From: a virus
Taxonomy: Duplodnaviria; Caudoviricetes
DNA length: 64,000 nt
Virus record (IMG/VR): IMGVR_UViG_3300032167_000048
Strand: one strand, 5' to 3'
In this document: one piece after another, positions 18,362 through 58,936 of the stretch
How the letters are laid out: every line of letters starts with the position of its first letter
How positions within the stretch are numbered: position 1 is the first letter of the stretch
Notes under the pieces: generated by a model
The model's input: only the letters and a program-made list of their open reading frames with translations
Databases searched by the model: none
What the model was told of the DNA's origin: nothing
Made by a program: the position numbers and the translations under genes

Positions 18362-19586
18362 AACTACTCCTTTTCTGATAGCTCAGTTGCAACCTTTTCA
18401 ATTATCATATCTTTTAATTTTTGAGCTATTAATTTATCTGTTTCGTTTTCTAATACATTTTCACGTAACAACTGGACAATCAATAATGCTTCAACCGTGC
18501 TAATTTCTATGTTGTGTTTCATTATATAACCACCTTTAAAACTTTCATTTTATTATGCAAGCATTGAATCTTCTTTTGCACAACATCCATTTAGTAATTC
18601 ATTTTTGGCTAACATCGCATCTGTCATAGCCACGACACCATCTACAAACATACCGTAATCTTTTTCAGTAACTCCCCAATCAGTAGATTCTTTAATAACT
18701 TCATACATCGCTTCTAAAATCATACTTCTACTCATTCTTATCACCTCTTAAAAACGAAATTTTATTGCCTATAATCTCCACATGTATTCTCTAATAATAT
18801 CTTTTATTTCTTCATCGCTATATTCTCTGCCTAATAATTCTTCACTATCTAACTGATTAGTAAAATAATCATATATTAAAGCCATGAGGTCATTATGTTC
18901 TGCAATTTTTCTATATTTTAATTCTGGTGCTCCAACATATTCCAAACAATCATTAATAAAGAAATTATTTGATATTTTATATAACTTTTGGAATATAGAA
19001 CATCCACCAATTTTATCACAACTATAACAAAGCATTTTGTTACCTCTTAAAACTCTTATTTTATTCATCGTCATCTACTAATCTTCTAGTAGACGATATT
19101 ACTTGTTCTAATACTTGCTTTAATTCAATTACTTGTGTTCCACATTCTCTACATCTATGCCAATAGAATCTAACACCGTCAGTTCCTTTGGCAACTTGAA
19201 ATCTATTTTTAACCTTTTTACAATGTGGACAATAAAACTTCCAATTCATATATTATCACCTCTTAAAACTCAGATTTTATTATCTAATTTCAATTTCACC
19301 ATATTCTAAATCATTGTTTATAAAAATTTTATGTCCAGTATACTCGGCTATTCTACCATTTGGCTCGTGTTCGTCTTTGTATTTTGATGTTATACGCAAA
19401 AATAAGTTTAATGGAGATATGGTAAAATCAACGCTCTTTGCTGTATTTTCACTCATAAAAATATATGGATTAGATTTATTTGTAATATTTACATATTCAT
19501 CAATCTTTCTATTTAATTTATCTAAATCCATTTTTATAATAGAAAAAGTATCTCTCATATTATCACCTCTTAAAACAACAATTTTA

Positions 19587-19730
19587 TTAGTAATCAATTT
19601 CTTTTCCACAACGAGGACAATATTCAAAATCGTCCACATCAAAGTCACTCATTGCATTACTTGATACTACATAACCACAATGTTCGCATTCAAATCTTCT
19701 TCCTTTGTATTCTTCTGTATCTGTCACCAT
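19587..19730 (-). CDS. 47-aa zinc-ribbon protein (not in ORF track)
   Basis: MVTDTEEYKGRRFECEHCG...YCPRCGKEIDY; AAAGAGG RBS; stop abuts the junction site. Confidence 0.7.
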   Translation of the reverse strand: MVTDTEEYKGRRFECEHCGYVVSSNAMSDFDVDDFEYCPRCGKEIDY

Positions 19731-19745
19731 ATAAATTTTACCTCT

Positions 19746-20105
19746 TTATTTACCTTTATACGACTCTGGAAGTGGTTGCCACGCTACAACATTATGAGCT
19801 TCATAATATCCCCACTCTGAATCAAAATCATAAAAGCCTGCTCTATTTATATCACAAAAATCATATTCATCCACTTCGTAAAGATTTGTACTGAATGACA
19901 ACACTTCAAATAATTCGTGATTGCCAAAGTTGCTCTGACACAAATATTCTCCATCTTCTTTTGGCAGACCTTCGCTTGTTGGATTCCATTTATTCCAATC
20001 TTCATCCACCCAAACACCCTTTAACTCATGAATATATTCATATAAAATATCTGAAGGTAGACCTAATAATTCTAATACATCAGATTTTTTAATCCATTCT
20101 TCCAT
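19746..20105 (-). CDS. DUF551-like phage protein
   Basis: WNPTSEGLP...VVAWQPLPE motifs. Confidence 0.7.
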   Translation of the reverse strand: MEEWIKKSDVLELLGLPSDILYEYIHELKGVWVDEDWNKWNPTSEGLPKEDGEYLCQSNFGNHELFEVLSFSTNLYEVDEYDFCDINRAGFYDFDSEWGYYEAHNVVAWQPLPESYKGK

Positions 20106-20357
20106 AACTTACCTCATAAAACCTTTATTTTATCACCTTAAAATTCATAAGTTACTTTAACTTTTAAAATATGAAACTCTTCAGGTTCGTCATATGTGCT
20201 TAATTCATATTCACAACTTTCTTTACTCATCAACAAATCATGTTCCATAACATCAGTTTCATTTCCACAACGATAAAACTTTAGGGGAAATTCTTTTGAT
20301 GCGATGCAATATTTTTCTTCTGATATAATCATTTTAATACCTCTTAAAATCTTTGTT

Positions 20358-20864
20358 TTATAACTTTGTTTCATTATTAGCAGATGTAACATCCCAATAC
20401 TTAGTAGTTGATAAAGAATCTGATAATTCACTAATAGTATTACTAATCGTGTTGAAATTATTTGCACAATCTTGAATTGCTTTATCATAATGTTTTAATT
20501 TTTCTACATTCCATGATACATGTCTATTAGATGACGTATATCTATTATTGTCTGCAATATCTGTTATACTCATTGCTTTAATCTTACTATGTAATCCAAT
20601 GTTATATAACATCTGTTGTAACACAGATTCTGTATCGTCTACCAAAATACCATTGTCAAGACTTCTATTTCCTCTAATTTTATCTGAAAACACATCGCCA
20701 ACACATAATGGCTCTGGAATATTTAAATGTAATTCTTTTGCCATATGTAATAAAACATTTTTTTGCGCTAAGCTACTACACAAAATTGGTGCATCATTAA
20801 ATTCACTTGCATAAAGCAATCTTGTTGTTTTGCCTTGACCTCTACCTAAGTTAATAATCTTCAT
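20358..20864 (-). CDS. Small P-loop-containing protein
   Basis: GRGQGKTT at the N-terminus; ILVDD Walker-B-like motif. Confidence 0.6.
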   Translation of the reverse strand: MKIINLGRGQGKTTRLLYASEFNDAPILCSSLAQKNVLLHMAKELHLNIPEPLCVGDVFSDKIRGNRSLDNGILVDDTESVLQQMLYNIGLHSKIKAMSITDIADNNRYTSSNRHVSWNVEKLKHYDKAIQDCANNFNTISNTISELSDSLSTTKYWDVTSANNETKL

Positions 20865-23031
20865 AATTTACTCCTTATTGACCTAATAACTCTTTGCTTA
20901 GTTTTACAAAATTACTTCCAGAAGAATACAATCCATCATATCTATCATTTCTTTCTGCTTTTCTTAATTCATATTCAAGAGCTTCTGAATCTTCTTTCTT
21001 GCAACTTAACATCATTTGCCAAGTTAAACCATCTACATAATCATGCTGATGTTTATTTTTAACATGATTATATGGTGGGTGTATTTTTAATGATGGAGTT
21101 ACTAATTTAAAAATTTTTAATCTCATATCATATGAGACATAATCTATGTTTGCTAAATAATAATTTCTATTTCTATAATCCATATTAACCTCTTATTCTA
21201 CGCTCTTAATGACACAAACATTGTGAACAATAATTGTTTCGCCATAAATTGTTTCTATCCTTATCCAATTTGAAACCTGATTTGTTCTAAATTCAAAAGA
21301 TAATACATCACAAAATGTTTCTTCTTTTCCATTATATTTAATTGTTTTTAATTTCATCACTTAAAATCCTCGTTTTATAACTCTCTAACCTTAAACAAAT
21401 TATATGTCATAGTTTCTTCATATGCTTTTGCCATTTTGTCAAATGCTTCTTTATCTCTAAAAATAAATTTGTTCTCAAAATATATTACGTCAGTTCCTTC
21501 TGGCATAGTCGATTCATATTCGTAACCATACATTTTTTTATAAAACCAATTTATAATTTTATATTTGCTATATTTCTTTTGCTTCTTTATTTGTTGAGCA
21601 ATAATACATGGTATACCAAATAATAATTCATTCATTTTTTACCTCTTAAAACTAATCTTTTATAACCTTATTAAAATGTTCTCATTTCCATTTCTTCATC
21701 TGAAATACAATCACATTCTATCTGTGCATCAAAGTGTTCGCTTAAAAGACCAAGCCAATCATGTTCTGTAATGCTATGACCAGAAGCCCATTCAACACCA
21801 TTTACTTCAAGAATCTGCCAATCTCCAGATTCACAATTTGTTACTTTTACATGTTTCATATTATTCACCTCTATTAGAAATTTCTTCAACACAAACATAT
21901 GCATAATGTGTATACTCTTTATCATAAGCAACTGTAAATTCTGCATCTTCAAGTGCTTTTACAATTTTCTTTAAACTTTCTGTATCAGAAGCCTTTATCT
22001 CTGCAATCTTCATAATTTTTAACATATGCTTTACCTCTTAAAATGTTAGTTTTAACATGTGCAACGCCATTGCCAATGTCCGTCCCAGAACACTTTCTCA
22101 TAGTACTTGCACCCTTTACAACCAATTGTCTTTCTTTTTGATTTACTTACTTTTCTTTTACAAAAGAAAGCCATATCTTTTACCCCATAAAATTAAACTT
22201 TTATAATACTCTTATCCATGTGTTGTTGTGAAACACATAATCTTTATCCAAACATTCTTCTATACAAATGTCTCCGTTTTTAACCTTATCTGAATCAACA
22301 CAAGAAATATTTTCTGTGTGGATAATACCATCTTTATCTCTGTACCATCCACCACAATAACCATCATATTTCTTTTTTAATTCTCGATATTCTTTAACAA
22401 AAAGCTCTTTGAACCATAATTTATAAAATTCAAATGTATTTTTTGCATTAAGAAACTGCATATAATAATTTTCTCTATCTGTTTCATATGCAATCATTTC
22501 TTCTTTTGAATTAAATTCTATAAATTTCATATTACCTCTTAAAATTCAGCTTTTACGTTCCCATATTCCAATAGCAATATGATAATGCAACCACCATACA
22601 TCGATAACACTACAATTAATATATCTATAAATCCAAGGTTGCCATACAATTGTTGGAACAAATGAAAATATATAATTATCATTACCAACACAAAATTTAA
22701 TTGTCGGTTTAATTCTATATTCTTTTCTATTTTCTTTTAATCTAATTGAATCTTTAATTAACTTCATTTTTCTCAACCAATCTAAATGTAAATCTAGTAT
22801 TTTCAGTTTTTACGATAATCATATCATTCACATATTCCACACTCTGAATCACACTTGTATGAATTCTATGTGCAAGTTCTCTAAAACAACCATCTTCAAT
22901 CCAAAGAAACCAGCCGCGCTCCCCAACATTAAAATATGCTGGGTAAGCGATTCTGCCCAATACTCCTTCATAAATTGGATTATGGTCATTAAACTCTTCA
23001 ATTTCTTCAATAATATATTTTTTATTATACA

Positions 23032-23367: not shown

Positions 23368-23380
23368 ATTAATTACCTCA

Positions 23381-24562
23381 TTAAATATTATCAAGCCAGC
23401 TTAAATCAACATCTTTATTATCTATAACGTTGCTACTTGTAGGAACACTATTGCCTAAAAGCCCACCAAACATATCATTGTTGTTTTGAGATGCTTCAAG
23501 TCTATTACAATATTCATCATATGGTTTATGAAGACTTCTACTATAACCACATAAGTTTGCGAAGTAATAACTCTGTTCTTTTACAGATTCATCAGTATCC
23601 CAGAAACATCTATCACTATGAGCCTCTCTATAATCGGCTTCTCTAAGTTCAATATCTTTAATAGTTGTTGATACATGAGTAGTCCATTTCTCAATCAGCT
23701 TCTCTACTAAATCAACATAAACATAACAATCTGAAATCACGTATTTTGCTCTTACTTCTTCTGGAAGACAAGTAATATCATTTGTATCAAGTAGTTCTTT
23801 TAGATATTTATCTGGTTCATATCCAAAATGTTTCAACCAAGTTTTTGCATTACTCTGTAGACTTTCTCCAATTTTACAACGTTCTGATTCTCTTGTTTTA
23901 ATAGCACCATTTTTCTGCTCATACTGAATAGTTACATATTTTAAGAAGTTCCAACAGATTTTAATCTTATCCATTGGTATACCCTGCTGATGCAATCCAA
24001 TTGCATATAATACCAACTGACCACATTCATTCTCTGCTTTTGCACCCTTATAAATACTAGATGTTTTAAAGTCCACGATATTAATACAATCATCTTCGTC
24101 TCTAAAAGCACAGTCGATATATCCTTGAAATAAGTTGCCATCAATCATGATTTTTACAAACTGTTCAATAATTGGTTTCTGCTTTAATACCGTATGATTA
24201 TTAAAGAAGTGAACTAAATTTTCATAATACTTATCTTTAATTTTCGTATTTTTTTCTTCATCTGTTCTATCAAATTTTAAGTCAGCGATATTAACAGCAA
24301 CTGTCCAACCATCTTCAAACTGACCAATCATGTCGCTATATTCAATTTGATTTGTATAAAACTTTTCTAAGATATCATGTGCCAAACCACCAGTTGTCGT
24401 ATAAATAGAGTTTGCTCTATCTTCTTTTGCTTTTTTAATATATTTTAAATAATATTCATACGGACTTGTATGAAAACAATTAATTTTAGACCATGACCAA
24501 ATACGGTCAACGCCTTCTTTTTTCATAAGAGCCTGTAACTGCTCACTCGTTAATCTAGCCAT
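23381..24562 (-). CDS. PD-(D/E)XK (RecB/Cas4-like) nuclease
   Basis: WSWS; G..AHDILE; GYID...IVDFKT; QLVLYA. Confidence 0.88.
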   Translation of the reverse strand: MARLTSEQLQALMKKEGVDRIWSWSKINCFHTSPYEYYLKYIKKAKEDRANSIYTTTGGLAHDILEKFYTNQIEYSDMIGQFEDGWTVAVNIADLKFDRTDEEKNTKIKDKYYENLVHFFNNHTVLKQKPIIEQFVKIMIDGNLFQGYIDCAFRDEDDCINIVDFKTSSIYKGAKAENECGQLVLYAIGLHQQGIPMDKIKICWNFLKYVTIQYEQKNGAIKTRESERCKIGESLQSNAKTWLKHFGYEPDKYLKELLDTNDITCLPEEVRAKYVISDCYVYVDLVEKLIEKWTTHVSTTIKDIELREADYREAHSDRCFWDTDESVKEQSYYFANLCGYSRSLHKPYDEYCNRLEASQNNNDMFGGLLGNSVPTSSNVIDNKDVDLSWLDNI

Positions 24563-24590
24563 TCATTTACCTCTTTTATTTATTTGTTTT

Positions 24591-25287: not shown

Positions 25288-25326
25288 AATATCACCCCTT
25301 AAAATCACCATTTTATTGCCTTTTAA

Positions 25327-25374
25327 ACACAATATATTGTGTCGTTATTTTTAATAATACACTATATATAGTAT
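25327..25374. promoter_or_regulatory. Tandem NrdR-box pair
   Basis: acacaatatattgtgt (25327, perfect palindromic consensus) and acactatatatagtat (25359); 32-bp spacing. Confidence 0.8.
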
Positions 25375-25574: not shown

Positions 25575-26648
25575 TTAAAACCTCTTTTTTAAACTCTTCT
25601 CATATTTTTCATGTTGCGTTGTATCATAAACAATTCTGTTATCAAACAGATATTGGAAATCTTTATCACGCGCATCTGCTGGACTATCTTTAGCAGATAA
25701 GATATCCCATTTATCTTTAATGTAGCTTACTTTTCTGCCTCTCCAAAATTTTTCGCACATATGCCATACTTCTTCGTCTCTAATGTCTTTATCCATAGCT
25801 ATCACTATTTCTACATTTAAGCCCCAAAGAATATTTATCTGTTCGTCACTCAACGTGTGACCAGATAATGCCACGCCAGTTTCATCAAACAAACTATCTC
25901 TTTTTAAAACGCTTTTTTCTGCTTCATATACAACCACATAACCAGCCTTTTTAATTGATTCGCTGTTTTCATATAATCCGTATAAATTTAATAGCTTTGG
26001 ATATGTTGGTGTAATAAAATATTTTTTAATCCCAAATTCATTATAGTTTTCTACCGTAGTTCTCTGATTAAAACCAAGCAGCTCACCAGTAAGCCAATAT
26101 TTCATAGGAATAATTACACGTTTATATTTATAACTATAAGCCAGAGCAAATTTCTTTCTGGTCTTTTCTGTTATACCCTCTCTTAACCAGTCAATATGCA
26201 ACATTGGAATATAATCATTCATTAGTTTATCATCTAAAATATGAATATCATCAACATCTATTGTTCTTTTTTTACCACAAGCACGCTTAAATACTTCAAG
26301 AGGGTCGAATTTTTTCTTGGGCTTTTCCGCTCTTTTATATTCATATTTAATCCCAAGAATATTATGTATATATTTAATTGCCTCAATAATAGACATATTT
26401 TTATTATATTGGACTAGAGTTACAATGTCAGAACCTTCGCCAAACTCTTTTTCTCTAGTCCAATTTGTTACGCTCAAATACTCGTTATTTCTTACATTAA
26501 TAGCGCCTTTGTTATCGCCATTAAAATTACCACATGAATAAAATTCTTTTTTAGGATGATAAACTATACTGTGACAACCAATTTCCTCTAAGATATATTC
26601 TATTTTTTTATTTTTCCAAATATACTCTTTTAATTCACCAATTGTCAT
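25575..26648 (-). CDS. DNA primase (TOPRIM)
   Basis: LYGL; VYEAEKSV; AMDKD; KDSPAD; adjacent to the helicase. Confidence 0.85.
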   Translation of the reverse strand: MTIGELKEYIWKNKKIEYILEEIGCHSIVYHPKKEFYSCGNFNGDNKGAINVRNNEYLSVTNWTREKEFGEGSDIVTLVQYNKNMSIIEAIKYIHNILGIKYEYKRAEKPKKKFDPLEVFKRACGKKRTIDVDDIHILDDKLMNDYIPMLHIDWLREGITEKTRKKFALAYSYKYKRVIIPMKYWLTGELLGFNQRTTVENYNEFGIKKYFITPTYPKLLNLYGLYENSESIKKAGYVVVYEAEKSVLKRDSLFDETGVALSGHTLSDEQINILWGLNVEIVIAMDKDIRDEEVWHMCEKFWRGRKVSYIKDKWDILSAKDSPADARDKDFQYLFDNRIVYDTTQHEKYEKSLKKRF

Positions 26649-28163: not shown

Positions 28164-28838
28164 CTACCATAAATTCGAAAATCTATCTTTCTTCTTTTCT
28201 TTTGGTTTATATTCAACCCCAACATGATTCACAATTTCTACTGTTGTATTTTTTGCTTCTTCTTTTGCCTTTTCAACATTTTTCATTCTGATGTATATAT
28301 CATTAATATTTTGTTCTACAATTTTTAAGGCAACATTAAATCTATGCATTTCATCATTAAATCTGCTTGTTCTAAAAACATTATGAATAGTTGGAGAGCA
28401 AAATTTAAAAGTGTTCAGAATAGTCTGATATGAATAATCGGCAGTAGATTTAGTATTATTATTCTCCATAAACTTATTGGTTAATAATCCTTTTAATCTA
28501 AGAGCCATTTTTTGAGATAATGCTTGTTTAGGGTCATATCCCATAATATTAACCTTTACATATTGATAAAGCTCATCCCAATCTTTATTATCTTTATCAG
28601 ACATCTTTTTTACTTTTTTCTCTGGTTTAACATCTTCTTCTTTTTTGCATCCACAAGACTTAACACGTTTTTGATTTAGGTCGCTACCACGAACAGCGAA
28701 GTCTTTTGTGCCACATTCGCAGTCACAATACCAAACAACATGCCTTTTATCGTTTGGCGCTCTTCCAGTTACCGTGAGCAAACCAAATTTTTTACCAGTC
28801 AAATCATTAGGTTTTGCCATGTTCTCACTCCTATCCAT
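28164..28838 (-). CDS. Replication-module protein with N-terminal DLTG.KFG.L / CDCECG / SCGC domain
   Basis: N-terminal motif usually found in HNH/AP2-associated proteins; no HNH catalytic motif seen. Confidence 0.6.
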   Translation of the reverse strand: MDRSENMAKPNDLTGKKFGLLTVTGRAPNDKRHVVWYCDCECGTKDFAVRGSDLNQKRVKSCGCKKEEDVKPEKKVKKMSDKDNKDWDELYQYVKVNIMGYDPKQALSQKMALRLKGLLTNKFMENNNTKSTADYSYQTILNTFKFCSPTIHNVFRTSRFNDEMHRFNVALKIVEQNINDIYIRMKNVEKAKEEAKNTTVEIVNHVGVEYKPKEKKKDRFSNLW

Positions 28839-28886: not shown

Positions 28887-29975
28887 TTATTTACAAACAG
28901 CTAATACTTCTTTCGCTACATTTAAATCATCGATTTCATTTGGATTTCCAAATCCTTTTTCTTTATAAATCGCCATTGCTGGTTTAATGGCATCCATATT
29001 TGATTTATTTGCAACAAAGAATTCAACAATTTTAGCTTTAACTTCTTCTAATTCTTTTTCTGCCTTTGCTTTTGATTCAGCTTCTGCAAGACGTTTCATA
29101 TTTTCTACTTCTTCTTTTTCATTTTCTTTTTTGCGGTCTTCTACAGACTTTCCACCTTTTTTCACTTCGGCTTCTAAAGCATTCTTCATTGCTTCAATAA
29201 ATTCATCTGCATCAAAGTTAATTTCATTAGTAATCTGACTCATACGGCTTCCGCTATCTACTGTATAGTTGTCATCTCTAAACTTAATTTTTCTTGTTTC
29301 AGATTTTACATTAACAACTTCCTTACCATTAACTTTTCCTTTTACAAGTTCTCTATCAATGTATGCAATACCAACTAAGTCAATATTCTTTTTAAGCTGA
29401 TTGAAGTATCTCTGAGATACATCTGAAGTAATCTGCTGATATGATTCATTTGTAATTGGGTCTGTAATAGTTGTCTGACGGACATGACCGATTACACTAA
29501 ATGCAACTCCAACATTTCTCAGTCTAAAGAGCTGTTCCTGAAGAAGTTCCATAGCTTTGTCCTGACCTTTCATATAACCGCCCCAAGCAGCATTGATTGC
29601 AGTTGTTCTCTTAGCTGGATTTTCTTTGTTCCATAATCTAATAGATTCCTGCTCTGCAAGCTGAAGTGCATTATCAAGTGTATCTAAGAATACAACTTTT
29701 AAATCAGCATAGTCAGTTGTTCTATTATCAACAATATCATCAATGATTTCTACAAATGTTTCCCAATCTGGAACATCTTCATAAATGATATCTTCGATAT
29801 ATTTTGCACCATTTTCACGATACATTTCTAAAAAGATATAATTATCTCCTACTAATTTTTCTGCAACTTCTTTCATGATTGTTGTCTTACCAATCTTAGG
29901 AAGACCTAATAAACAGATGTTTGCATCAAGTGGATTAAGTGATACGTGATTTTTCTTACCAAATTTTCTTGCCAT
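28887..29975 (-). CDS. AAA_24 / Sak4-like ATPase
   Basis: GLPKIGKTT; VFLDT; VIGH. Confidence 0.85.
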   Translation of the reverse strand: MARKFGKKNHVSLNPLDANICLLGLPKIGKTTIMKEVAEKLVGDNYIFLEMYRENGAKYIEDIIYEDVPDWETFVEIIDDIVDNRTTDYADLKVVFLDTLDNALQLAEQESIRLWNKENPAKRTTAINAAWGGYMKGQDKAMELLQEQLFRLRNVGVAFSVIGHVRQTTITDPITNESYQQITSDVSQRYFNQLKKNIDLVGIAYIDRELVKGKVNGKEVVNVKSETRKIKFRDDNYTVDSGSRMSQITNEINFDADEFIEAMKNALEAEVKKGGKSVEDRKKENEKEEVENMKRLAEAESKAKAEKELEEVKAKIVEFFVANKSNMDAIKPAMAIYKEKGFGNPNEIDDLNVAKEVLAVCK

Positions 29976-31640: not shown

Positions 31641-32066
31641 TTAATTAAGATAAAAATCTACTACATATTCAACAGCTTCACGAATGTCCGAGCACATTCT
31701 ACAAACAAATTCATTAAGCCAAGGATGCAGCTCTTTTTCATTATTAATACCAATTACTGGAATTCTATTTTCATAAGCAATAGCTAGCTCTGCACAAGTA
31801 CCAATACTTTTTGGGTCATTAAAATTCACAATCACCAAATCAGAATTTCTCAATTTATTTAATTCAAATTCCATTACTTCACGTTCTGTTTTATGATGCT
31901 TTTCTTCATAATTATAATATTCTACTGGATTGAAAAACATAGGTTTTTTATCATAATCATAGTCACCATATTTAATTGCATTAATAACTTTGCTTCTCCA
32001 TTTTAACTGCTCTTTAAAGCTTACAGATGACATTCCACCACTAAGATATATGCTAACTGTTTCCAC
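31641..32066 (-). CDS. Nucleoside 2-deoxyribosyltransferase-family protein
   Basis: IYLSGGM...W...FNP...SDLVIV...SIGTCAELAIA. Confidence 0.85.
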   Translation of the reverse strand: METVSIYLSGGMSSVSFKEQLKWRSKVINAIKYGDYDYDKKPMFFNPVEYYNYEEKHHKTEREVMEFELNKLRNSDLVIVNFNDPKSIGTCAELAIAYENRIPVIGINNEKELHPWLNEFVCRMCSDIREAVEYVVDFYLN

Positions 32067-32079
32067 TTAATCACCATCC

Positions 32080-32874
32080 TTAATTATAATATTCATATAA
32101 TTTAACTACGTTTTCCATTAAGCAAGCCACTGTTAACAATCCAACTCCTCCAACATTTTTAGTAATATAAGAAGCTTTGCGTTTAACATTATCAAAATCG
32201 ATATCGCCAACAAGTTTTCCATCATCATTTTTTGTCAACCCTACATTAATTACTACAGCACCGTCTTTCACATGGTCAACCGTAATTAAATTTTCTTTTC
32301 CAACACAAGAAACAATAACGTCACACTTATTTGTTATGTCTGCTAAGTTTTGTGTTTTACTGTGACAAATAGTAACAGTTGCATTTTTATCAAGCATCAT
32401 ATCAACTAACGGCTTTGCACAAGTTTTTCCTCTGCCTACAATACATACATGTTTCCCAGTTAAATCATATTTGATTTCTTCAAAGATTCTCATTACACCA
32501 TTTGCGGTTGCTGGTTTAACGAATGAGTCTACTGCAAAACCATCGCAATCTAACCACTTATTATTCATAATATCATTAGCAATATATTCTTTAACACTGC
32601 TTAATTTATCACAAATAGGTAATTGAACGATTGTAGGTATATTTGATTCAGCAATATCAAGTAATCTATCTACTTCCGTATTTTCATCTAATACAATTTC
32701 ATTAAATTTAATACCACAATATTCAGATGCAATTTTTTTATTTCTAACATATGCCCTACTTGGTTCATCATAAGGATTAGTTAATACATTAATCTCATAA
32801 CCTTTTCCATCGGCAACAGCTTTTACATCATCTTTAATCTTTTGTGCAATTTCTCTACAATCTATAACATTCAT
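32080..32874 (-). CDS. folD: Methylene-THF dehydrogenase/cyclohydrolase
   Basis: YVRNK; VQLP; GKHVCIVGRG; NATVTICHSKT; GDIDF; GGVGLLTVACLMEN. Confidence 0.92.
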   Translation of the reverse strand: MNVIDCREIAQKIKDDVKAVADGKGYEINVLTNPYDEPSRAYVRNKKIASEYCGIKFNEIVLDENTEVDRLLDIAESNIPTIVQLPICDKLSSVKEYIANDIMNNKWLDCDGFAVDSFVKPATANGVMRIFEEIKYDLTGKHVCIVGRGKTCAKPLVDMMLDKNATVTICHSKTQNLADITNKCDVIVSCVGKENLITVDHVKDGAVVINVGLTKNDDGKLVGDIDFDNVKRKASYITKNVGGVGLLTVACLMENVVKLYEYYN

Positions 32875-32885
32875 TTTATCACCAC

Positions 32886-41936: not shown

Positions 41937-41965
41937 ATTATAACAAATAAGGTTATATTTGTCAA
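41937..41965 (-). promoter_or_regulatory. sigma-A promoter inside array B
   Basis: TTGACA-17-TATAAT just downstream (minus sense) of the 41992 site. Confidence 0.85.
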
Positions 41966-44835: not shown

Positions 44836-45540
44836 ATTTATTTCCTTTCTTTGAATATTCTGATAATTTAATTTAAAAATTAATAATCTTCTGACAGTTC
44901 CTTTCCCATCATTTCACAGAATTCTAAAATCCATTCTTCAAGACCGTCAATTCTATCTTCTAAATATCTAGTCCCCACACTTTCGAAATCGAACCATCCC
45001 TCTTTTTTATCCCACGTTAGCTGTGCAATACTATAGCAATATTTGTCAGACATAACCTTTTTTCCAGTTGTTAAATCTGTCACCTCGGTAGGAATATCAC
45101 GATTAACCCATCTAACTAAGTCATATTTATATGGTTCAAAGTGTCCGTCTAAATAGCATGGTGCTCTAAACTGAAAGTTATTCCATATATCTGTGTATAC
45201 TCTAACCACCATATATTACCTCCTCTTTTTATTTACATATATTATAAAATATATTTATGAACTCCGTATGTACAAATTGTAAACAAATTGTAAACAAATA
45301 AAAGTCTTATTTTATTACCAATCCCAATCGTTTTTGTCTTCGCAATTAATTCCATTAACAATTGCATTACATTGTTCAATTAAATTTCTTGTATTGTCAT
45401 CATTATATCCCCAATCAGAATCATATCTTGTAATACCAATATGCCTCATGATGTTTTTCTGATTTTCCATAATCTGAGATAATGATTCAAATAATATTCT
45501 CTTTTCAAATAATTCGTTATTCATATACACCTCTTAAATT

Positions 45541-46200: not shown

Positions 46201-46977
46201 AATTTCACCTCCACTTATCCACTTAAAAATACTGTTTTATCTGACCCATAATTTTTCTGCTGGAGCAATCCATTCAATCCATGCTTCTGGAATTACAACA
46301 AAAGCACCACTATGATATAATTCAAACCATACAACACCCCATGCTTCATGATGATATTTTCCACAAAAATCCTTTTTAATTGTTGTATGTGCCAATTGAT
46401 TTCTATAAATCTCTTTAATATTTACAATATAATAAATATCTCTATCTCTATTCATTTTACACTCCTTAAAAACATTCTTTTATGTGCTAGTTATCAATCT
46501 CCTCAAATAAGATACTATTAAACTGCACATTTGGAAACTCTTCTAATTCAACTATTGTATGCCATCCATGAACATCCACATCAACCAAAGTGTATTCTGT
46601 TCCAACAGTTAACAAATGCCCAGTTCCACTAAAACCCCAAGCACCAGCATCATCGTTATCAATACATATAATTTTTCTTGTTTCATTGTTAAAAATGTTC
46701 ATATTCTATACCTCTTAAAACTTTGATTTTATAACTCAACCTCTTTTATTTCTTCATCTGCATTGATTCCGTGATTTTCACATACTTTAACTAATTTTCT
46801 AATAATATCTAAATTTTCTTTTTCTTCAGCCAAAGTTTTTAAATGTCCATCAATCAAATCAATCGATTCTTGAAGATGCTTATTATCTCTATTTAATAAT
46901 TTAAAATAATGTTCTATATCATCAGTACCAAATAACCATCTTAAAATTAATTTTCTCATAAAATCCTCCTAATAAAA

Positions 46978-47490: not shown

Positions 47491-47516
47491 TTTTACCTCC
47501 CACTTAAAACTCTGCT

Positions 47517-47885
47517 TTATTGCCATTGTTTCTTCCATTCGTCATATTTTAATGACGCTTTACATTTCTTATTACAATAATCTTTCTTTCTACAAAACTC
47601 ACATTTGCCATTATGTAGCCATTGTTCTTTATAATCTACTAATTCAGTTTCTCCATCCCAATTCTCAAGTTGAACGTCAAATCCGTGTTCTTGTAATAAT
47701 ATTGTAGAATCTTTATAATTCAATCCATAAAATGTATGCGTACTTAAATATGGATGAAACCAGTTATCTTCCGTTTGCACCTTTGGAACAATGTGTCCAC
47801 AACCATTATCTAGTTCAATATCCAAATAATAATCTTTTGATTCTAATCCAACTAAGTCTTCCCATCTACTAATTAACTTCTTCAT
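47517..47885 (-). CDS. Hypothetical protein flanked by 19-bp direct repeats
   Basis: ccacttaaaactctgcttt on both sides. Confidence 0.75.
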   Translation of the reverse strand: MKKLISRWEDLVGLESKDYYLDIELDNGCGHIVPKVQTEDNWFHPYLSTHTFYGLNYKDSTILLQEHGFDVQLENWDGETELVDYKEQWLHNGKCEFCRKKDYCNKKCKASLKYDEWKKQWQ

Positions 47886-48430
47886 AATTTTCTACCACTT
47901 AAAACTCTGCTTTTGTGTGCTATAATCTAATAATTTTTCCGTTTGAGTTATGCAAACTTCCAATGCTTTTCGCACATAGTTCACTCTTCTTACAAGTTCT
48001 ATAATAGTCCCAACCATCTCTCTTATTCTCTTCTTTAATATCTTCATTCATTGGAACAATATATTTTTCCCAAACTTGCTGAATTGCATCTTTTGCGTCT
48101 TTCGCAAGAACAATCCACATATTATCGTACTGTCCATAATCACTTGTAACTAAATAATCTTTCATAATAATCTCCACTTAAAACTTTACTTTTATTGTAA
48201 TTTTTATTCTATAAAATCATTGAATAAAATAAATCTAATGTCTGTAAGTTTGTCAATTATTATATCAAATTCTTTTCTACAATCATCACACACTTCTATA
48301 GACATTGTGCTAAAATTTCCACCACTTAACTTTTCTTTTGGGATTTTTATTTGTATTGTTCTTTTCACTTCTTTACCACATCGGTCACAAAAATATTTTG
48401 TCATATTTTTCACCTCTTAAGATGTTTCTT

Positions 48431-48727
48431 TTATGCCCATTTAAAACTTCCACAAGTTGTTTTTGCTGGAATCCATGCTTTATCACTTGGAATTGGTTTC
48501 CAAACATCTTCTGGAAATTCCATATCACAACAATCACTATATCTACAACAACTACAACAGTTTATTTTATGTAACTCTACCCTTTTTTCTTTGCTAGTAT
48601 TTTCGTATTCTTGCATCATATAATCATATAAAAGTTCAGACATTCTTTGTTTGTCTTTTGATGCACATTCATACATCCTTTTATATTCTTTTAACTCATT
48701 AATTTCTTTTAATAATTCTTCTAACAT
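48431..48727 (-). CDS. Cys-rich hypothetical protein flanked by 20-bp near-identical direct repeats
   Basis: cttaa(g/a)atgtttcttttatg on both sides. Confidence 0.75.
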   Translation of the reverse strand: MLEELLKEINELKEYKRMYECASKDKQRMSELLYDYMMQEYENTSKEKRVELHKINCCSCCRYSDCCDMEFPEDVWKPIPSDKAWIPAKTTCGSFKWA

Positions 48728-49453
48728 ATTTTCACCCCTTAATCACTTAAAATGTTTCTTTTATGTTAATTTTCTTCCGCATACTGGACAATAACCAATT
48801 GGCATCAAGATTCCATTATAATAATGGTCACCACATGTTGCATACAGCCAAGGTTCATCTTTAAACATAATAATAGCATCTTCTTCGCTCCAAGGGTGTG
48901 AAAAATGTTTTTTATATTCTTCTTCGCTACTCCATATTGTTTTACAAAAATCACAACTCATATTCTTACCCCCTTAAAATCTGTCTTTTATAATGTTACT
49001 TCTAATCTCAATCTATCAATCTCAATATCTACTTCACATAATGTATCGCTTCCACAATAACATCCACCTTCATCACGATATTGAATACGAATATCATAAT
49101 CTTCGACATTGTTTTTAATAGCCCATTCATATAGCTCTTTAATCGTCATATTTTTACCTCGTAACAACTTAAAATCTTCCTTTTATTCCCATTCAGATGT
49201 TTCAACAATGATATTTACATCTAATCTAGCATTGCAAATATCCAATCCAGACAATCCACTTCTAATCACTTCTAATAAATCTTCATCATATTCACATAAA
49301 GATTCTACAATATTTCTTTCTGCTTCAAACAAAATTTTTCTTGCATTATACAATGTTAATGCTTCTTCGTCTGTTAGTTCGATGTTGTTTATTATTTTTT
49401 TAAATCCAAATTTCATATTTTCCACCTCTCAACCACTTAAAATTCACATTTTA

Positions 49454-49756: not shown

Positions 49757-50054
49757 AAGCACCTCCGTTACTCGTATCTTTCACTTTTACGAATCTTATC
49801 CAACTTCTGCTTCTTCTTGTTTAAGTGTCTTACTTTTGCTCTAGGTCTATATTTGTCGCATCTCTGACAATATTTGGTGTGTTCTGCATCTCTACCCTTT
49901 TCACATTGTCCTGCACAAATATAATATAAACATGGTGTTTCTCTTGTCTTTGCCATAATAATTACTCCTATTCTACTTATAACCTTATTTCTTATGTATT
50001 GGAGGAATGGAATTATCTTCCATCCTCCGTTTCTGATTGTATTATACTACATCC

Positions 50055-51137
50055 TTATTCGTTTGTCAATACGTTTTCTGAATTTTCTTTAAAAAATTCT
50101 TCATAGCTTTCATTTAAAGCATTGTGTCTAGCAACGATAGAGCCATTTCTAGCCACTCCATTAGATGTAGCTTCCATATATCTAGCATACACATCTGAAT
50201 CGTTTTCTGTTTTGAAGAATGATGTTAAAAATTCTCCAAACATAGCTTCTGTAATATCATTATCAATAGACTGCTTTACGAATGGTACAAGTGAAACTAA
50301 ATGTGTTTCTGTATATAATTTTCTAGCAACGTCCTTTTCATGGTTGCTTGCTAATTCTTCATGTACATTTACAATATAGTTAAATACTTTGTTTAATTCA
50401 ACTTTATCATCTTCTGTTACTTCCATTGCTTCAATCTGTGGATTAAAGTCTTTACTTGCAAATGAAACATTATCTACATCATTGTTTAACATTGTTAATA
50501 CTTTTGTTACAATTACTGCATGATTCTTATTTGCTCTTGATTTTTCCGTCAGCATATCTTCAAATAACTTATGTGAGCCAATATCAAGTAATTCACCAAT
50601 GTTCTTAGCAGATGCAAGTGTTCTTGATTTAGTTGATAATGGTTTTCCATTATTTAATCTTCTGAACATTTCTGCTTTCTGAGTCTGGTCAAGATTGTCA
50701 TAATACTTAACTGTAATAGTTGCATCTTTAATTGCATCCTGTAATTCTTCTTCCAATTCAGAAAACTTCTTGCCAGAAATATCAATAGTACATTCATTTC
50801 CGTCTTCGTCTAAGTATGGAATAGGTTTTAATTTTGTTAATTCAAATTCATCTTTCATATACTTATAAATAGAAGTATTTCTCTGCTGACCATCCATTAC
50901 ATCATAAATTTTAACCTTATCACTATCACTTTCACCACGTTCTGCATATACTGGTGGAATAGGATATCCCATGATAATGCTCCAAATTAATTCACTCATT
51001 CTATGTTTTTCCCAAACAAAACTTCTCTGTACTACGTTCTTAAAACTAATTGTTTTCTTATCCATCATTTTTACAATCTGTTTGCATGTCCATGTAATGC
51101 TAGAACCTTCAATCTTTAAAATTTTGTCAATTGCCAT
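50055..51137 (-). CDS. DUF262 (ParB/Srx-superfamily, GmrS-like) protein
   Basis: QRSFVW; SIIMGYPIPP; DGQQR; FRRLNNGKPL. Confidence 0.88.
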   Translation of the reverse strand: MAIDKILKIEGSSITWTCKQIVKMMDKKTISFKNVVQRSFVWEKHRMSELIWSIIMGYPIPPVYAERGESDSDKVKIYDVMDGQQRNTSIYKYMKDEFELTKLKPIPYLDEDGNECTIDISGKKFSELEEELQDAIKDATITVKYYDNLDQTQKAEMFRRLNNGKPLSTKSRTLASAKNIGELLDIGSHKLFEDMLTEKSRANKNHAVIVTKVLTMLNNDVDNVSFASKDFNPQIEAMEVTEDDKVELNKVFNYIVNVHEELASNHEKDVARKLYTETHLVSLVPFVKQSIDNDITEAMFGEFLTSFFKTENDSDVYARYMEATSNGVARNGSIVARHNALNESYEEFFKENSENVLTNE

Positions 51138-51157: not shown

Positions 51158-51940
51158 TTAAATATAATCCAATCCTAATTCAATGCTTTTATACATATCT
51201 TTTTTCTTTTCATCCATAATAGCTATATATCGAAGTGTTGTAAGCGAATCAGAATGTCTTAAACATTCTTGTAACATTACTAATGCATCGCTTTTATCTT
51301 CTGCGTTATCATAGATATTTCTTGCCCATGTTTTACGAAGTGAATGTGAGCCTACATTCTTATCAATACCAGCTTCTTCTGATACATCAACAATAATTTT
51401 CCACAATCCAGCTTCTGTAATTGGCTTGCTTCCTTTTCTTGACTTAAACATATAATCGTTTAAATCTTCAATTGGGTATTTGCTTGTATAATTTTCAATA
51501 GCCTTTTTAACAGTCTGATTAAAAAATATCTTTACAAATTTACCAGTTCTTCTAGTCTTTTTAGGTTGTAGCACATAAGATTCTTTAAATGTCATATCAT
51601 TCTTGTAAAAATATGACCAACGTAATTGTATTAAATCACTTGCTCTTAGTCCAACATTTATTCCAATCAAGAACAACATTTTATTCCTATGTGCAATTTG
51701 TTTTTTGTTTTTACTTGTTGCGTTTTTGATACGATAATTTAGTACATCGATTATACTTCTTACTTCGTCTACATCAAATGGATAAACTGTTGAGCTTATA
51801 CCACTAACTCTGTTACAATGACGCTTATCAATTGTACCATCCTTATTATATCTAACCTTTGGTTTTTTAGCTAATTTCCCATTTACAATAGAAAGAGTTA
51901 TAACATTATCATTTTGTTGATACTTATTCATTGTTGCCAC
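51158..51940 (-). CDS. Tyrosine recombinase/integrase, catalytically intact
   Basis: GLRASD (R), KKT (K), HSLRKT (HxxR), LRHS (H), TTLRY (Y). Confidence 0.93.
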   Translation of the reverse strand: MATMNKYQQNDNVITLSIVNGKLAKKPKVRYNKDGTIDKRHCNRVSGISSTVYPFDVDEVRSIIDVLNYRIKNATSKNKKQIAHRNKMLFLIGINVGLRASDLIQLRWSYFYKNDMTFKESYVLQPKKTRRTGKFVKIFFNQTVKKAIENYTSKYPIEDLNDYMFKSRKGSKPITEAGLWKIIVDVSEEAGIDKNVGSHSLRKTWARNIYDNAEDKSDALVMLQECLRHSDSLTTLRYIAIMDEKKKDMYKSIELGLDYI

Positions 51941-54077: not shown

Positions 54078-54103
54078 ATTTATTCTCCTTATAACCTTAT
54101 ATA

Positions 54104-55170: not shown

Positions 55171-55198
55171 AAAAAGCACGGAGATTAATTCTCCGTGC
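55171..55198 (-). terminator. Intrinsic terminator
   Basis: gcacggaga-ttaat-tctccgtgc followed by a T-run on the minus strand. Confidence 0.8.
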
Positions 55199-55582: not shown

Positions 55583-56047
55583 CTAAACCATCTCCCTAGT
55601 TGTATACTGATTATACATTGTTTTATTTGCATATGAATACTCTAACGCATCATATAAATATCCTGCATCAATCCTATTGCTAATACAACCTTTGATAATT
55701 CCATCAAAATAACTATCTTCTGGTGGACAGATTCCTTTTCTATTGTCTGCCATTACATATACAATTGCTTTTTCTTTTGCTCCATCATCCATTAAAACAT
55801 TCACAAACTCTTTTACGTAATAGTTTGGATACCCTTCGTACATATCAAGTCTAGCCCAATCGTCATCATCAATATCCCATACAACAACTGGTACTTCGTC
55901 ATAGTCATCACCACTAATAATATCAGCATGACAATTAAATACTAATTTCCATCCTAACAACTTACCAGTTCCTATAACCTTAGATTTTGGACATCTAAAA
56001 GCCATTTGTTTTAAATTCATATTACTTCCATAAGCTACATATAACAT
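55583..56047 (-). CDS. Gamma-glutamylcyclotransferase (AIG2-like) family protein
   Basis: YVAYGSNMN..QM..RCP; LDMYEGYP..Y. Confidence 0.88.
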   Translation of the reverse strand: MLYVAYGSNMNLKQMAFRCPKSKVIGTGKLLGWKLVFNCHADIISGDDYDEVPVVVWDIDDDDWARLDMYEGYPNYYVKEFVNVLMDDGAKEKAIVYVMADNRKGICPPEDSYFDGIIKGCISNRIDAGYLYDALEYSYANKTMYNQYTTREMV

Positions 56048-56342
56048 AAATATCAACCTCCTTTATTATATTATATACTATATTTATTTATTTGTCAAGT
56101 AGTAATTCGCTATGTGGTATAATAAAGACCATAAATATGTTCTTTACTTCTTAAATATAAACATCCAGTTATCATATACAAGTTTTCATTATTTAAATCA
56201 TCTTTTTCAATTGATTTAATTCTTCCAACTTCGTATTCGTTTTTGTGATTCAGATAATAAACTTTATCCCCTACACAATATTCATCTTTAATCATCTTTT
56301 CTTTAAAATAGTACTCTTTGTTAAACTCAAACATAATGCCTC

Positions 56343-56528
56343 CTAAACAACCATATTATACTGTTTCATTAATCTCTCCATGATTAGTCTATTACATCTG
56401 CTAGGAACAATAGATAAATGTTCATTCTTGTCATTTCTATAAATCTCATGACTTCCTTTGCAATGATGTAACTTCCAACCATTCTTTTTAAGAATCCGTT
56501 TTACATCTCTCTTGCTATATTCACACAT
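56343..56528 (-). CDS. hicA: HicA-family toxin (no adjacent HicB)
   Basis: RILKKNGW.....KGSHEIY; 61 aa. Confidence 0.75.
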   Translation of the reverse strand: MCEYSKRDVKRILKKNGWKLHHCKGSHEIYRNDKNEHLSIVPSRCNRLIMERLMKQYNMVV

Positions 56529-57473
56529 ATAGTCACCTCCTTTATAACCTTATCTTTTATCTACTTATATTATACTACTATATATACTACTTGTCAAGTA
56601 TTATTTATACTTCAATTAGCTTTATTTTGCCTTTGTACTGTGGATATGTATTATAAATAGCTTTTGTTCCAAACTGAATTTCTTTTTTATTTGTAATACT
56701 ATTATAGAATGCATCAATAATTAATTTACTGTTGCCATGAACAAGTTTCTTACATTCTGCAAAAGTAGGCTTCTTATTCATTCCAACCCATTCATATCCA
56801 TGATTGAATAGTAATTCAACTACTTTATTGAATTTATCTTCTGTACTTGCATTATAAAATCCGTTCATAATAAACCTCCTTATACATCTTCTACTTCCAG
56901 TATTTCATACATACAATCTTTATTATCAAGACCATAAAACTTAATGCATTCTTCTACACTACTCACGATACAATGTTGCATTCTCCATTCCCAATTTGAC
57001 AACTTGTCTGCATATATAAATGTAATCTTCTTCATATAATTATCTCCTTATCTTTTATCTATTTATATTATACTACATTATATACTACTTGTCAAATACT
57101 TTTTTAAAAATCAATAGATTTTTTACTTCTAATAGTAGCAATGATAGATATTCATCACTTCTTTCTTCATTGCCTTTACAATTATAGTATTCATATCTGT
57201 CTTTATATGTTGCTATATTGTTTAATAAAATATCTTCCATTGCCATATCTACAACTCCTTATCTATTATCTGATGTTTCATTGTCTCCCCAAGTACACTC
57301 CTCTGGCAATGCTCCACCACATTTAAAATTATGTAAGCTACCTACTAAAGTAAGTTGCATACCCTCCCTATAGTTATCAAATCCAAGTTCTCTTGCTTTT
57401 TCTTCTGTCATTTTGCCGTCTCTTAACGCAATATAATCATCATATAATAATGCCATATATGTACACCTCTATT

Positions 57474-58936
57474 TAAAATCATTATTTTATTTGCCTAACA
57501 AACTACCACAACCATATTATTATTAGGTAACTGATAAACAAACTGTGTTTCTTTATCTCCCATAACATACTCTTTAAAAATTTCTTCACTTACAAAAATC
57601 TGTTCTGCAACTTCTGTATCGTATTCAAAGTATTCATTTTCTTTTTCATATTCAAAACATTCTGTAAAGTTATTTTCTCTATGCCAATGATTTTCCCATT
57701 CTCTGATATATTCATCCACATCATTCAAAGGCATTAATACTCTCCAATGATTGATTGGATTTTCCATTTTAAGATTATAAAATAAATTTGTAATATCTTT
57801 TGCTTCGCTTTCTGTAAATGCTAAAGCATCAGCAAACTGTTTTACTTCTTCTGTATTTAATCTCTTCATACTAATCTTCCCCTTTTAAAATCACTCTTTT
57901 ATGTGCTTATTCTTTGTTAAAAAATCCATGTTCTTCTAAAAATCCACTTTCATATACATCGTATATATAACTATAAAAACTATCAATATAATCTTCAATA
58001 TTATTTTCAATCAATTCTTCCCAAGTTTCTTTTGGACAATTCTTTTCATACATTCCAAACATATATGACTTCATACCATAATTATTCATACATAATACAA
58101 ATTCAATTAATTCTCCGTTTGGACTAACTTCTACATAAAAATCATCATTTACATCAAATCTTGTTGTTGTATATGTAGTTTTTTTCATATCTCCACCACC
58201 TAAAATCGTCATTTTATTTACTCAAAATATTTTGATAATTCATTTCTAACATCGGTATATGTGAAGCCAAGATTCCCAATTTTGCAATCCCCATCTTCAA
58301 GCCATTCATCAACCATATTAATTGCATTATCATCATATCCAAAGATTAACAAACCACATTCATCTGTAATATTTTTGATATAATCAAAGTTGTCAACGAT
58401 AGACCATCCCTCAATAAAATCTCCGTTTGCAGAATCTCCTCCAAGATTATCATTTTCTTTATGATAATTCTGTTCCCAAACTTTATACAATTCTTTGCCT
58501 TTTTCATTAAGTTTCATATCATTACCTCCATATAAAATTATCCTTTTAATTGTTGTATAATTCTTTTGCCAAACATTCAATTAGCATGAACATTACATTT
58601 CTTTCTTCCTCTGTTGTCATAGGCAACTCATACCAAACTTCATCATCTTTTTCTCCGTAATTACATACGGCTTGAATACTAACTTCCTTTTCCTTTGTAT
58701 TGAACATAAGATAAAAATTATAGTAAACATTGTTATCATAATCAACACCAACTAAATCTTCATTCCCTTGTTCTTTTCTAATGTTATTAGTTAATCTAAT
58801 TAATTCATCTGTTGCACATAAAACAATATTTCCCTCATATTCATCATTTGTAAAATCTAAAAAATCTCTATCAACAAAATCAATATATAATTTTTCATAT
58901 CTCATATCAAATCCTCCACTTAAAATTACATTTTTA
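57474..58936. repeat. Array C: 5 TAAAA-N6-TTTTA junction sites
   Basis: Starts at 57474, 57886, 58201, 58533, 58921. Confidence 0.9.

Follow-up and report, generated by a model that had tools for sequence, protein, structure and literature searches.

Phage genomes are mosaics, and it is debated whether their parts are joined at special linker sequences, as the theory of modular evolution holds, or by random illegitimate events that selection filters. The question takes a concrete form in a virus record of IMG/VR (IMGVR_UViG_3300032167_000048; 109,892 bp), in which dozens of copies of the 16-bp palindrome TAAAA-N6-TTTTA stand between small open reading frames (ORFs). What are these palindromes for? 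An original prediction, made from the letters of a 64,000-nucleotide stretch of this record (bases 30811-94810, hereafter the window), had proposed an integron-like system of gene cassettes. Following up this proposal, we found that the 16-mers form a conserved, ordered and addressed set of junction sites, between which the genes have turned over almost completely. We lean, with modest confidence, towards reading them as DNA-level joints at which SPbeta-like phages exchange accessory genes by in-register crossover.

A strict palindrome at gene junctions

The window contains 43 exact copies of TAAAA-N6-TTTTA, as compared to 1.58 +/- 1.19 copies (maximum 5) in dinucleotide shuffles, so the palindromes counted earlier (42 perfect and 3 with one mismatch) are real. 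As predicted, enrichment is exclusive to a centre of six bases: scanning n = 4, 5, 7, 8 and 9 gave 2, 1, 2, 5 and 0 copies, respectively. All 43 sites lie at gene junctions or in intergenic sequence according to our gene calls, which are heuristic, despite 87% of the window being coding by these same calls. The three arrays described before were found again: 12 sites at 18.5-22.6 kb, 23 exact sites and 3 decayed copies (47505, 47900 and 48418) at 37.8-49.5 kb, and 5 sites at 57.5-58.9 kb. The remaining exact matches are single (6254, 25300 and 25576); the match with centre AAGAGG at 25576-25591 is probably a chance copy, as had been suspected, since it overlaps the Shine-Dalgarno sequence (SD) and start of the next gene and recurs nowhere else.

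Every gene of the window is on the minus strand, and on this coding strand the consensus reads W-TAAAA-N6-TTTTA-A-G-W-G-G-T, with the right arm merging directly into the SD and an ATG about 6 nt further on. The stereotyped layout noticed earlier (stop, arm, centre, arm, SD) is thus confirmed: the stop codon of the upstream ORF is the arm's own TAA at 22 of the 41 oriented sites, and a TAA stands immediately before the arm at 7 more. The conserved arm is just 5-6 bp long in the window, where the outer positions are asymmetric because the right side is the SD. Within the genome, the centre is a different set of six bases at each site.

The same motif is found in phages of Bacillus subtilis, which makes ideas about its function directly testable by standard genetics. 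SPbeta has 34 sites (2 in the control), again at n=6 only, and phi3T has at least 30, with about 24 centres common to both phages in the same order (site lists compared by reading). On either side of the SPbeta centre the half-site is longer, T-Y-T-R-R-W-TAAAA, giving an 11-6-11 site of two-fold symmetry, as is the geometry of sites for Xer-type recombinases. Because the motif is present in the genomes of isolates, it is not an assembly artefact. Chimeric assembly at 25-bp repeats seems unlikely. The addresses themselves (we use this word for the individual centres) are not shared at this distance, with 3-4 matches between the window and SPbeta, about the chance level; the most repeated 12-mers of SPbeta represent a different A/T-rich word. 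An unrelated small phage of IMG/VR, G007 (42,273 bp, with terminal repeats), contains 20 copies of the motif, most of them with T before and A after the arms, and 14 of the 20 are at junctions, including junctions of large late genes.

With the right arm abutting the SD, the left arm supplying the stop codon at about half of the sites, and the sites contained in polycistronic operons, one might suspect that the motif acts on mRNA, where a hairpin or a protein site could couple the translation of neighbouring cistrons, or process or stabilise the transcript between them. This alternative, raised in the original prediction as an RNA hairpin, is very improbable in our judgement. The stem of five A-U pairs folds at a positive energy (+0.7 to +1.8 kcal/mol), the mean minimum free energy of the 22-nt context is -0.5 kcal/mol, and the stem has no compensatory extension; for the cost of folding we rejected the hairpin. 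Two sites (41992 and 45299) exist without a following ORF start, and in SPbeta the SD is 10-25 nt away from the site. These three things (the energy cost, the sites lacking an ORF start, and an SPbeta site with an 11-bp symmetric half-site away from the SD) argue for a function in DNA rather than in RNA or translation. Action on mRNA would also leave unexplained why centres are conserved whatever the downstream gene.

We found no support for the site as a promoter either. It has no -35/-10 architecture, and the operons that contain the arrays start from two perfect sigma-70-type promoters on the minus strand, one at 50041-50069 (12/12 consensus match; head of the 49.9-42 kb operon) and one with the TG element at 41937-41965 (head of the 41.9-37 kb operon). 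No terminator-like sites were found at the array junctions. Outside the arrays, the SD of genes is immediately preceded by another stereotyped word, (A)GGTTATAA or GTTATAA (e.g. genes starting at 4580, 10070, 12267, 17783, 24562, 54077, 56528 and 59747), perhaps the -10-like element of promoters belonging to a different temporal class.

Conserved centres and changing genes

We compared the record (G000) with contigs gathered by scanning sequence collections for the motif plus SD or for a single address, using BLAST at E<1e-3 to call homology between short ORFs. The nearest relative in IMG/VR, G001 (109,934 bp, 44 sites), has a polymerase protein 82% identical to that of this phage, and core genes about 74% identical in DNA. 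Aligned by BLASTN, the arrays of the two genomes share only islands of 24-50 bp centred on the sites, and most array ORFs have no BLASTP match in the other genome. Corresponding sites share the six-base centre, and the ORFs on either side are unrelated in sequence and length. Shared centres are identical in all 6 of 6 positions although the core genes have diverged to about 74%; judged from these alignments, the centres are far better conserved than the polymerase gene, which points to selection or recombination-driven homogenisation acting on bases that a simple arm-reading protein would not need. A few ladder positions (we call the ordered series of addresses the ladder) have variants of 1-2 nt, e.g. 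CTAACA/TTAACA and TAGAAA/TAGGAA/TAGCGA.

At least 26 of the 43 window 16-mers recur, each in 1-15 of 32 other contigs, a conservation somewhat overstated since ladder positions were recognised by centre identity; most of these relatives are metagenomic contigs. Among 53 sources, 47 of 127 distinct centres are shared, and pairs of sites with the same centre and non-homologous flanks number 186, as compared to about 23 expected from position-wise base frequencies. In alignments, cross-genome identity stops at the edges of the 16-mer plus SD. The prediction that gene-content breakpoints of related genomes would fall at the sites is therefore borne out. Its statement that the spacers are almost always different is correct within a genome and does not extend to comparisons between genomes, where each is conserved. 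The proposed analogy to the heterologous coupling sequences of Tn916-type elements fails for this reason, with up to 15 other contigs carrying an identical centre on the corresponding rung of the ladder, in fixed order.

The order is strict. G000, G001, G003, G013, G036, G037:C55 and G039:C33 each contain a subset of one ordered series of about 60 addresses. The 19 addresses shared by G000 and G037 have a longest common subsequence of 19 (permutation maximum 11), and all 30 addresses shared by G003 and G037 are colinear. The genes in between are not constrained in this way; the ladder address ACAAAC, for example, has 7 downstream families in 7 genomes. In cross-genome pairs, the downstream ORF is homologous in 33, the upstream ORF in 26 and both in 1, so neighbouring slots are unlinked. 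Pairs with one homologous flank have centres that are either identical or unrelated; most of those with a homologous flank and a different centre, which we used as a test of crossovers in the 5-bp arms, are not positional orthologues. We tried a host-genome signal as well and rejected it for the motif plus SD, 68 of 69 such matches in four metagenome-assembled genomes (MAGs) being on a phage-like contig.

The individual sites of the window (all on the minus strand, with centres as read on the coding strand) reflect this pattern. In what follows, counts of other contigs refer to exact matches of the 16-mer, and a site is called private if its 16-mer does not recur in other contigs. In the first array, TGAAAG (18537-18552), TTTCGT (18749-18764), TAAGAG (19048-19063), TCTGAG (19264-19279), TTGTTG (19571-19586) and CGAGGA (21362-21377) are private. 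TAAAGG (20117-20132) is found in 6 other contigs, and its 16-mer is identical in 6 of 6 genomes compared, with flanks that are different or diverged. CAAAGA (20345-20360) and GTTTAA (22188-22203) each recur in 6 other contigs with 6 different downstream families, and GATTAG (21647-21662) recurs in 2. CTAACA (22039-22054; 3 other contigs) is in a 38-bp island with 92% identity to G001, surrounded by unrelated ORFs, and GCTGAA (22540-22555; 3 other contigs) has a 1-nt variant, TCTGAA, at the same ladder position of G001. Of the two single sites, TGGTGA (25300-25315) recurs in 5 other contigs with differing flanks, and TCCCAA (6254-6269) is private, followed by SD and ATG, and preceded by a 16-bp palindrome that is also present in G001. 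Just upstream of both single sites (about 25318-25345 and 6272-6300, minus strand) there are perfect palindromes of 14-16 bp, CACAATATATTGTG and GCACTATATATAGTGC, similar to ones in G001 and G037; they are candidate operators, possibly the counterpart of SPBRE (the operator of the SPbeta repressor MrpR, see below) for the MrpR-like protein of the window.

The second array contains the most widely shared addresses. ATAAAA (39531-39546) recurs in 15 other contigs, with 11 downstream families in 11 genomes, and TACGAA (39738-39753) also in 15, with 9 families in 9 genomes, as well as in 6 MAG contigs. AACATA (39956-39971; 12 other contigs) provides direct examples of breakpoints in L103, L145 and L159: L103/L139 and L145/L154 have the upstream flank alone in common, and L159 and L103 the downstream flank alone. 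ATAGAG (39311-39326; 8 other contigs) is in a stretch of 24 bp that is 100% identical to G001, with unrelated ORFs around. ACTTAA (37797-37812), the last rung of a block of centres starting with A, recurs in 6 other contigs, as does ATTATA (38727-38742), with 5 downstream families in 6 genomes; ATATAC (39093-39108) recurs in 5, and its downstream ORF is homologous to that of G001 only in the first ~47 aa. TGAACA (40529-40544), GGACTG (40723-40738), GAATGT (46467-46482), GGAAGA (49170-49185) and TGTGAA (49438-49453) are private. CGGTAA (40983-40998) has matches inside a helicase gene of G001, G002 and G039 that are not oriented and are probably a coincidence.

Further along, GAAGGA (42511-42526; 6 other contigs) has differing flanks, and GAAAGG (42820-42835; 4 other contigs) is in 29 bp with 96.6% identity to G001, with the SD variant AGTGGT kept together with the address. 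TCAAAG (46716-46731) recurs in 1 other contig, GTAAAG (48179-48194) in 5 with 5 downstream families, and GACAGA (48975-48990) in 3, with 4 families in 4 genomes. Several sites depart from the common layout. GAGAAG (41992-42007) marks an operon end and is followed by AGTGG and then by TTGACA-17-TATAAT, with no ORF start; CAGTAT (46224-46239) has AGTGG after the arm and the real SD 10 nt further; and the SD of TGATTA (40261-40276) is 15 nt away. The site TAAGAC (45299-45314) has no SD after it and a flipped copy in G036. Past it (45255-45298, minus strand) the 11-mer TTTGTTTACAA occurs as two direct repeats, which may be a regulator-binding site ahead of the gene at 45212. Flipped 16-mers were also seen at the same ladder position of different genomes, with TGATTA at 40261-40276 corresponding to TAATCA in G003 and G037, and TGATAA in SPbeta (99498) corresponding to TTATCA in phi3T (89340).

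In the third array every address recurs: TAATGA (57474-57489) in 2 other contigs, being duplicated in G004; GAGTGA (57886-57901) in 7; TGACGA (58201-58216) in 6; and ATGTAA (58921-58936) in 5, the last three each with 5 families in 5 genomes. GGATAA (58533-58548) recurs in 2, one of which is the distant 170-kb phage G015.

Two slots of the second array are bounded by copies of one address. The ORF at 48431-48727 is flanked by two GAAACA copies, an exact one (48748-48763) and a decayed duplicate with right arm TCTTA (48418-48433). The ORF at 47517-47825 is flanked by two decayed copies of GCAGAG, a ladder address in G001 and G037: one at 47505-47519, its left arm short by one A, and one at 47900-47915, with left arm CAAAA, which together form a 19-bp direct repeat. 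At least one arm is damaged in each of the two pairs. One address duplicate around a single ORF was also found in each of G004, G012 and G021. Such duplicates are what would be expected to remain if a one-gene circle had entered a site by a single crossover. Along the genome, centres come in blocks that share their first base (runs starting with A, then G, T and C), which suggests that new slots arise by local site duplication; twin addresses would diverge afterwards, leaving neighbouring centres alike.

Strict two-fold symmetric arms at a fixed spacing, with a half-site reaching 11 bp in SPbeta, would also suit operators for a dimeric phage DNA-binding protein (a repressor, a roadblock or an early shut-off factor, as with the stoperators of L5) that silences or times accessory operons gene by gene, recombination being a by-product of the fact that nothing else in the arrays is conserved. 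The sites are confined to one gene class, in operons with consensus sigma-70-type promoters, and SPbeta-like phages do carry a repressor of tyrosine-recombinase fold, MrpR (PMC10516654), to which a protein of the window is weakly similar. We nevertheless consider operators unlikely. They leave unexplained why centres are conserved at 6 of 6 bases per position, in fixed order and with any downstream gene, and the motif is carried by phages that share no protein with this one (blastp E<1e-5). In SPbeta, ChAP-seq (sequencing after chromatin affinity purification) of MrpR gave about 10 peaks, each at a copy of the 15-bp SPBRE in a promoter region (PMC10516654); the 34 junction sites lie elsewhere, and are thus not SPBRE or MrpR operators.

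Proposed in-register exchange and its candidate enzymes

How could crossover joints of this kind work? Each slot consists of a stop codon (often the arm's TAA), TAAAA, the six-base centre, TTTTA, a ribosome-binding site and one small ORF. The common arms would most likely be read by a two-fold symmetric protein, and the centre, unique in a genome and conserved between genomes in a fixed order, would act as the address. When related phages meet in one cell, by co-infection or by infection of a lysogen, strand exchange could take place between sites of the same address, and genes on either side would be swapped in register, leaving order, stop codons and translation starts undisturbed; non-identical centres would suppress deletions between neighbouring sites. 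That exchange at the sites proceeds via pairing of centres, and which enzyme is responsible, are points we infer.

For the enzyme, two options appear about evenly balanced: one of the tyrosine-recombinase type, because inverted arms around a 6-bp centre are the site geometry of that family, and annealing by a Sak4-like protein together with an exonuclease, on ~22-27 bp of identity. The spacing of exactly 6 agrees with the core sites of tyrosine recombinases, in which inverted arms surround an overlap of 6-8 bp. In favour of crossover joints, the window encodes a Sak4-like protein, a PD-(D/E)XK exonuclease and a Xer-like tyrosine recombinase. The putative Sak4-like single-stranded DNA-annealing protein (28887-29975, minus strand; AAA_24 2e-23, phrog_124 2e-26) is the candidate for short-homology exchange, and the exonuclease (23381-24562, minus strand; PF12705 1.7e-15, phrog_1218 3e-47) is its likely partner.

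The Xer-like candidate reader of the sites (51158-51940, minus strand; 260 aa; PF00589 1e-18, XerH 1.8e-8) looks catalytically intact, with R, HxxR, H and Y motifs that align with XerH. The original prediction had this enzyme move circular one-ORF cassettes between any sites in an integron-like manner, with the centres as free coupling sequences. Its position between the second and third arrays, the inverted arms and 6-bp centre that suit its family, the single ORFs flanked by address duplicates, and cargo families found behind different addresses are all in keeping with such capture and shuffling. We regard it as quite improbable, since the centres are not free but conserved and in order, the arrays of all close relatives are colinear, neither an attI/Pc platform nor an attC-like structure was seen, and the recombinase does not track the motif. 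Its homologues (48-50% identity) are found in a sister clade with only 7-9 sites, and none was found in the complete motif-bearing phages G007, G015 and G024; it also shows no significant BLAST similarity to YopP of SPbeta (best E 1.5), the product of a tyrosine-recombinase gene of unknown role that is among the five conserved core genes of SPbeta-like phages transcribed in the lysogen. These distributions weaken its candidacy as the cognate enzyme. Proteins with a PF00589 domain as such were found in 9 of 10 records with the motif, which is unremarkable, since temperate phages commonly encode them. From the idea of cassette exchange in a phage, then, the n=6 DNA sites at ORF junctions and the breakpoints located there stand, and the integron-like model, the free centres and the link to this recombinase are not supported.

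The second reader proposed earlier, a 317-aa protein (35666-36619, minus strand), fares no better: it is weakly similar to MrpR, of a repressor family with a dead tyrosine-recombinase fold, at a level below the cut-off (MrpR_N_CB, E=0.005), has no match among PDB sequences by sequence or profile search, and MrpR of SPbeta binds SPBRE instead (PMC10516654). Homologues of the 260-aa and 317-aa proteins are adjacent in the motif-poor sister G028 (7530-9584) and 15 kb apart in the window; in SPbeta, yopP and yopR are nearly adjacent, comparable to the G028 pair. The genes confined to ladder-rich genomes, with no counterpart in the sister clade, were an NAD ligase, a GmrSD-like protein and small ORFs; none was convincing as a candidate.

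Several observations weigh against crossover joints. No enzyme is tied to the sites, and the distribution of the 260-aa recombinase does not follow the motif. The arms of 5-6 bases are short for a tyrosine-recombinase site, with asymmetric outer positions in this phage. Homology-dependent exchange of any kind would break at the sole conserved sequence, and a dedicated function is therefore unproven; selection for future recombination is second-order, and whether it is strong enough to keep the centres constant we cannot show. Cargo replacement was not seen among near-identical strains of several samples, some of which lack one 83-aa gene call, so exchange is infrequent on short time scales; likewise, contigs with an identical 317-aa protein have the same gene order and thus offer no fresh exchange to map. 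The same cargo family is sometimes found behind different addresses, which means that exchange does not keep strictly to its register. The tendency to avoid palindromic centres is only marginal (0 of 146 observed, 3.0 expected, P ~0.04 with a strand-aware null). Finally, G007 carries the motif yet shares 0 proteins with this phage (blastp E<1e-5).

A bolder version of the crossover joints is possible though doubtful, namely natural cassette exchange at heterospecific sites: a tyrosine-recombinase-type enzyme, encoded by the phage or else the Xer-type one of the host, would act at dozens of sites of 16-28 bp with the six-base overlap as address, single accessory (probably anti-host) genes would be swapped in register, and slots would be born from one-gene circles followed by divergence of the address. 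With or without such an enzyme, the linkers of the mosaicism debate are explicit here, with 16 bp, a strict build and individual addresses, in an order kept across gut and rumen samples while nearly all genes between them differ. The ladder marks the slots of the fastest-changing genes, and is thus a place to look for anti-defence and host-takeover functions.

As to the phage itself, BLAST against SPbeta found only a YorL-like polymerase, a protein of the YorJ region and, outside the window, a SprA-like large serine recombinase, and the family PF26927 (Phage_SPbeta_YorH) is precomputed on a 218-aa product in contigs of the identical strain; on these few matches and this Pfam family, we take the source to be a distant SPbeta-like phage from gut or rumen. 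The features of SPbeta-like phages found are the YorL-like PolIII-alpha, the YorH-like protein, the SprA-like serine integrase and the weakly matching MrpR-like protein. The record is probably partial, because contigs with the identical 317-aa protein extend up to 153 kb. Relatives are 134-225-kb contigs binned with MAGs of Acutalibacteraceae, Lachnospiraceae and other Clostridia (faecal and yak-caecum samples), and megablast of the replication module against cultured phages gave 0 matches. The YorL-like DNA polymerase (PolIII-alpha, DnaE) is at 14604-17783 (minus strand), and the window also encodes a RecD2-like helicase, an NAD ligase, a DnaB-like helicase and a GmrSD-like protein. In the YorH-like 218-aa protein (28164-28820), the N-terminal 74 residues match an HNH-endonuclease PHROG. 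A cluster in the replication module (31641-34403) comprises FolD-like dehydrogenase/cyclohydrolase, class-V aminotransferase, nucleoside 2-deoxyribosyltransferase-like and YopX-like genes; with NrdD (7854-10076, minus strand) it could have a role in nucleotide supply, or possibly in DNA base modification. At 4027-4098 (minus strand), ARAGORN called a tRNA whose anticodon, TTA, would pair with the stop codon TAA; its neighbours are tRNA-Gln(TTG) at 4169-4244, tRNA-Ile(TAT) at 4248-4337 and, at 2773-2851, an odd tRNA-like call. A possible ochre-suppressor tRNA is of interest since the arm's TAA is the stop codon at half of the junctions.

Comparison with known systems

Literature searches found no paper describing the palindrome, and we compared it with the closest systems known. 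The stoperators of cluster A mycobacteriophages (bound by gp71 in L5) resemble the sites in that dozens of short repressor sites lie in short intergenic gaps. Stoperators, unlike the sites described here, follow one consensus, an asymmetric 13-mer of fixed orientation, and have neither a variable but conserved centre nor a ladder. Integrons share with the arrays the series of promoterless single-ORF units separated by palindromic sites. Their attC sites, imperfect palindromes of roughly 57-141 bp with R''/L''...L'/R' boxes, travel with the cassette and are recombined by IntI at attI as folded single strands; cassette order is free, and attI and Pc adjoin the integrase at the head of the array. 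None of these features was seen here: the site is 16 bp with perfect 5-bp arms, the centre stays while the cargo changes, and at the head of the arrays stand sigma-70-type promoters, next to which no integrase lies, with an order of sites that is colinear among relatives.

The PeSL cassettes of T4-type phages, ~100-bp elements with a sigma-70 promoter and a G/C stem-loop terminator for which mini-circles have been shown, are also repeated intergenic elements of hyperplastic, ORFan-rich early regions, bound insertions, deletions and replacements, and were proposed as linkers of modular shuffling (Arbiol et al. 2010, PMC2839356). The sites described here likewise bound ORFan insertions, deletions and replacements between related phages. 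They have no promoter or terminator, and whereas PeSLs are alike within a genome and recombine together, each of our sites is 16 bp plus SD with strict arms and a centre of its own.

In Acinetobacter plasmids, dif modules are flanked by pdif (XerC/XerD) sites (Mindlin et al. 2019, PMC6449649). As in our arrays, discrete modules that occur in different replicons are delimited by numerous short sites within accessory regions. The pdif sites have an 11-6-11 geometry, in agreement with the symmetric consensus of SPbeta. The arms of pdif are dif-like and read by the host's XerC/XerD, whereas here the arms are TAAAA/TTTTA (with no convincing match to dif when compared by eye), the centres are position-specific and conserved, and the order is fixed; in addition, the slot is usually one small ORF inside an operon, and the replicon is a phage.

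There is also a likeness to the heterospecific lox and FRT sites of recombinase-mediated cassette exchange, in which symmetric arms surround an asymmetric centre that must match and differing centres do not recombine, so that replacement is in register. Those sites were engineered in the laboratory, with arms of 13 bp around a centre of 8 bp, and catalysis at the phage sites is putative. We know of no natural counterpart with dozens of ordered centres; if our reading is true, such a counterpart of orthogonal-site cassette exchange among phages would be new, the element not having been found described in the literature. Should an enzyme read the sites, they would constitute a new natural system of site-specific gene exchange, and might serve as ready-made recombination sites that are mutually orthogonal.

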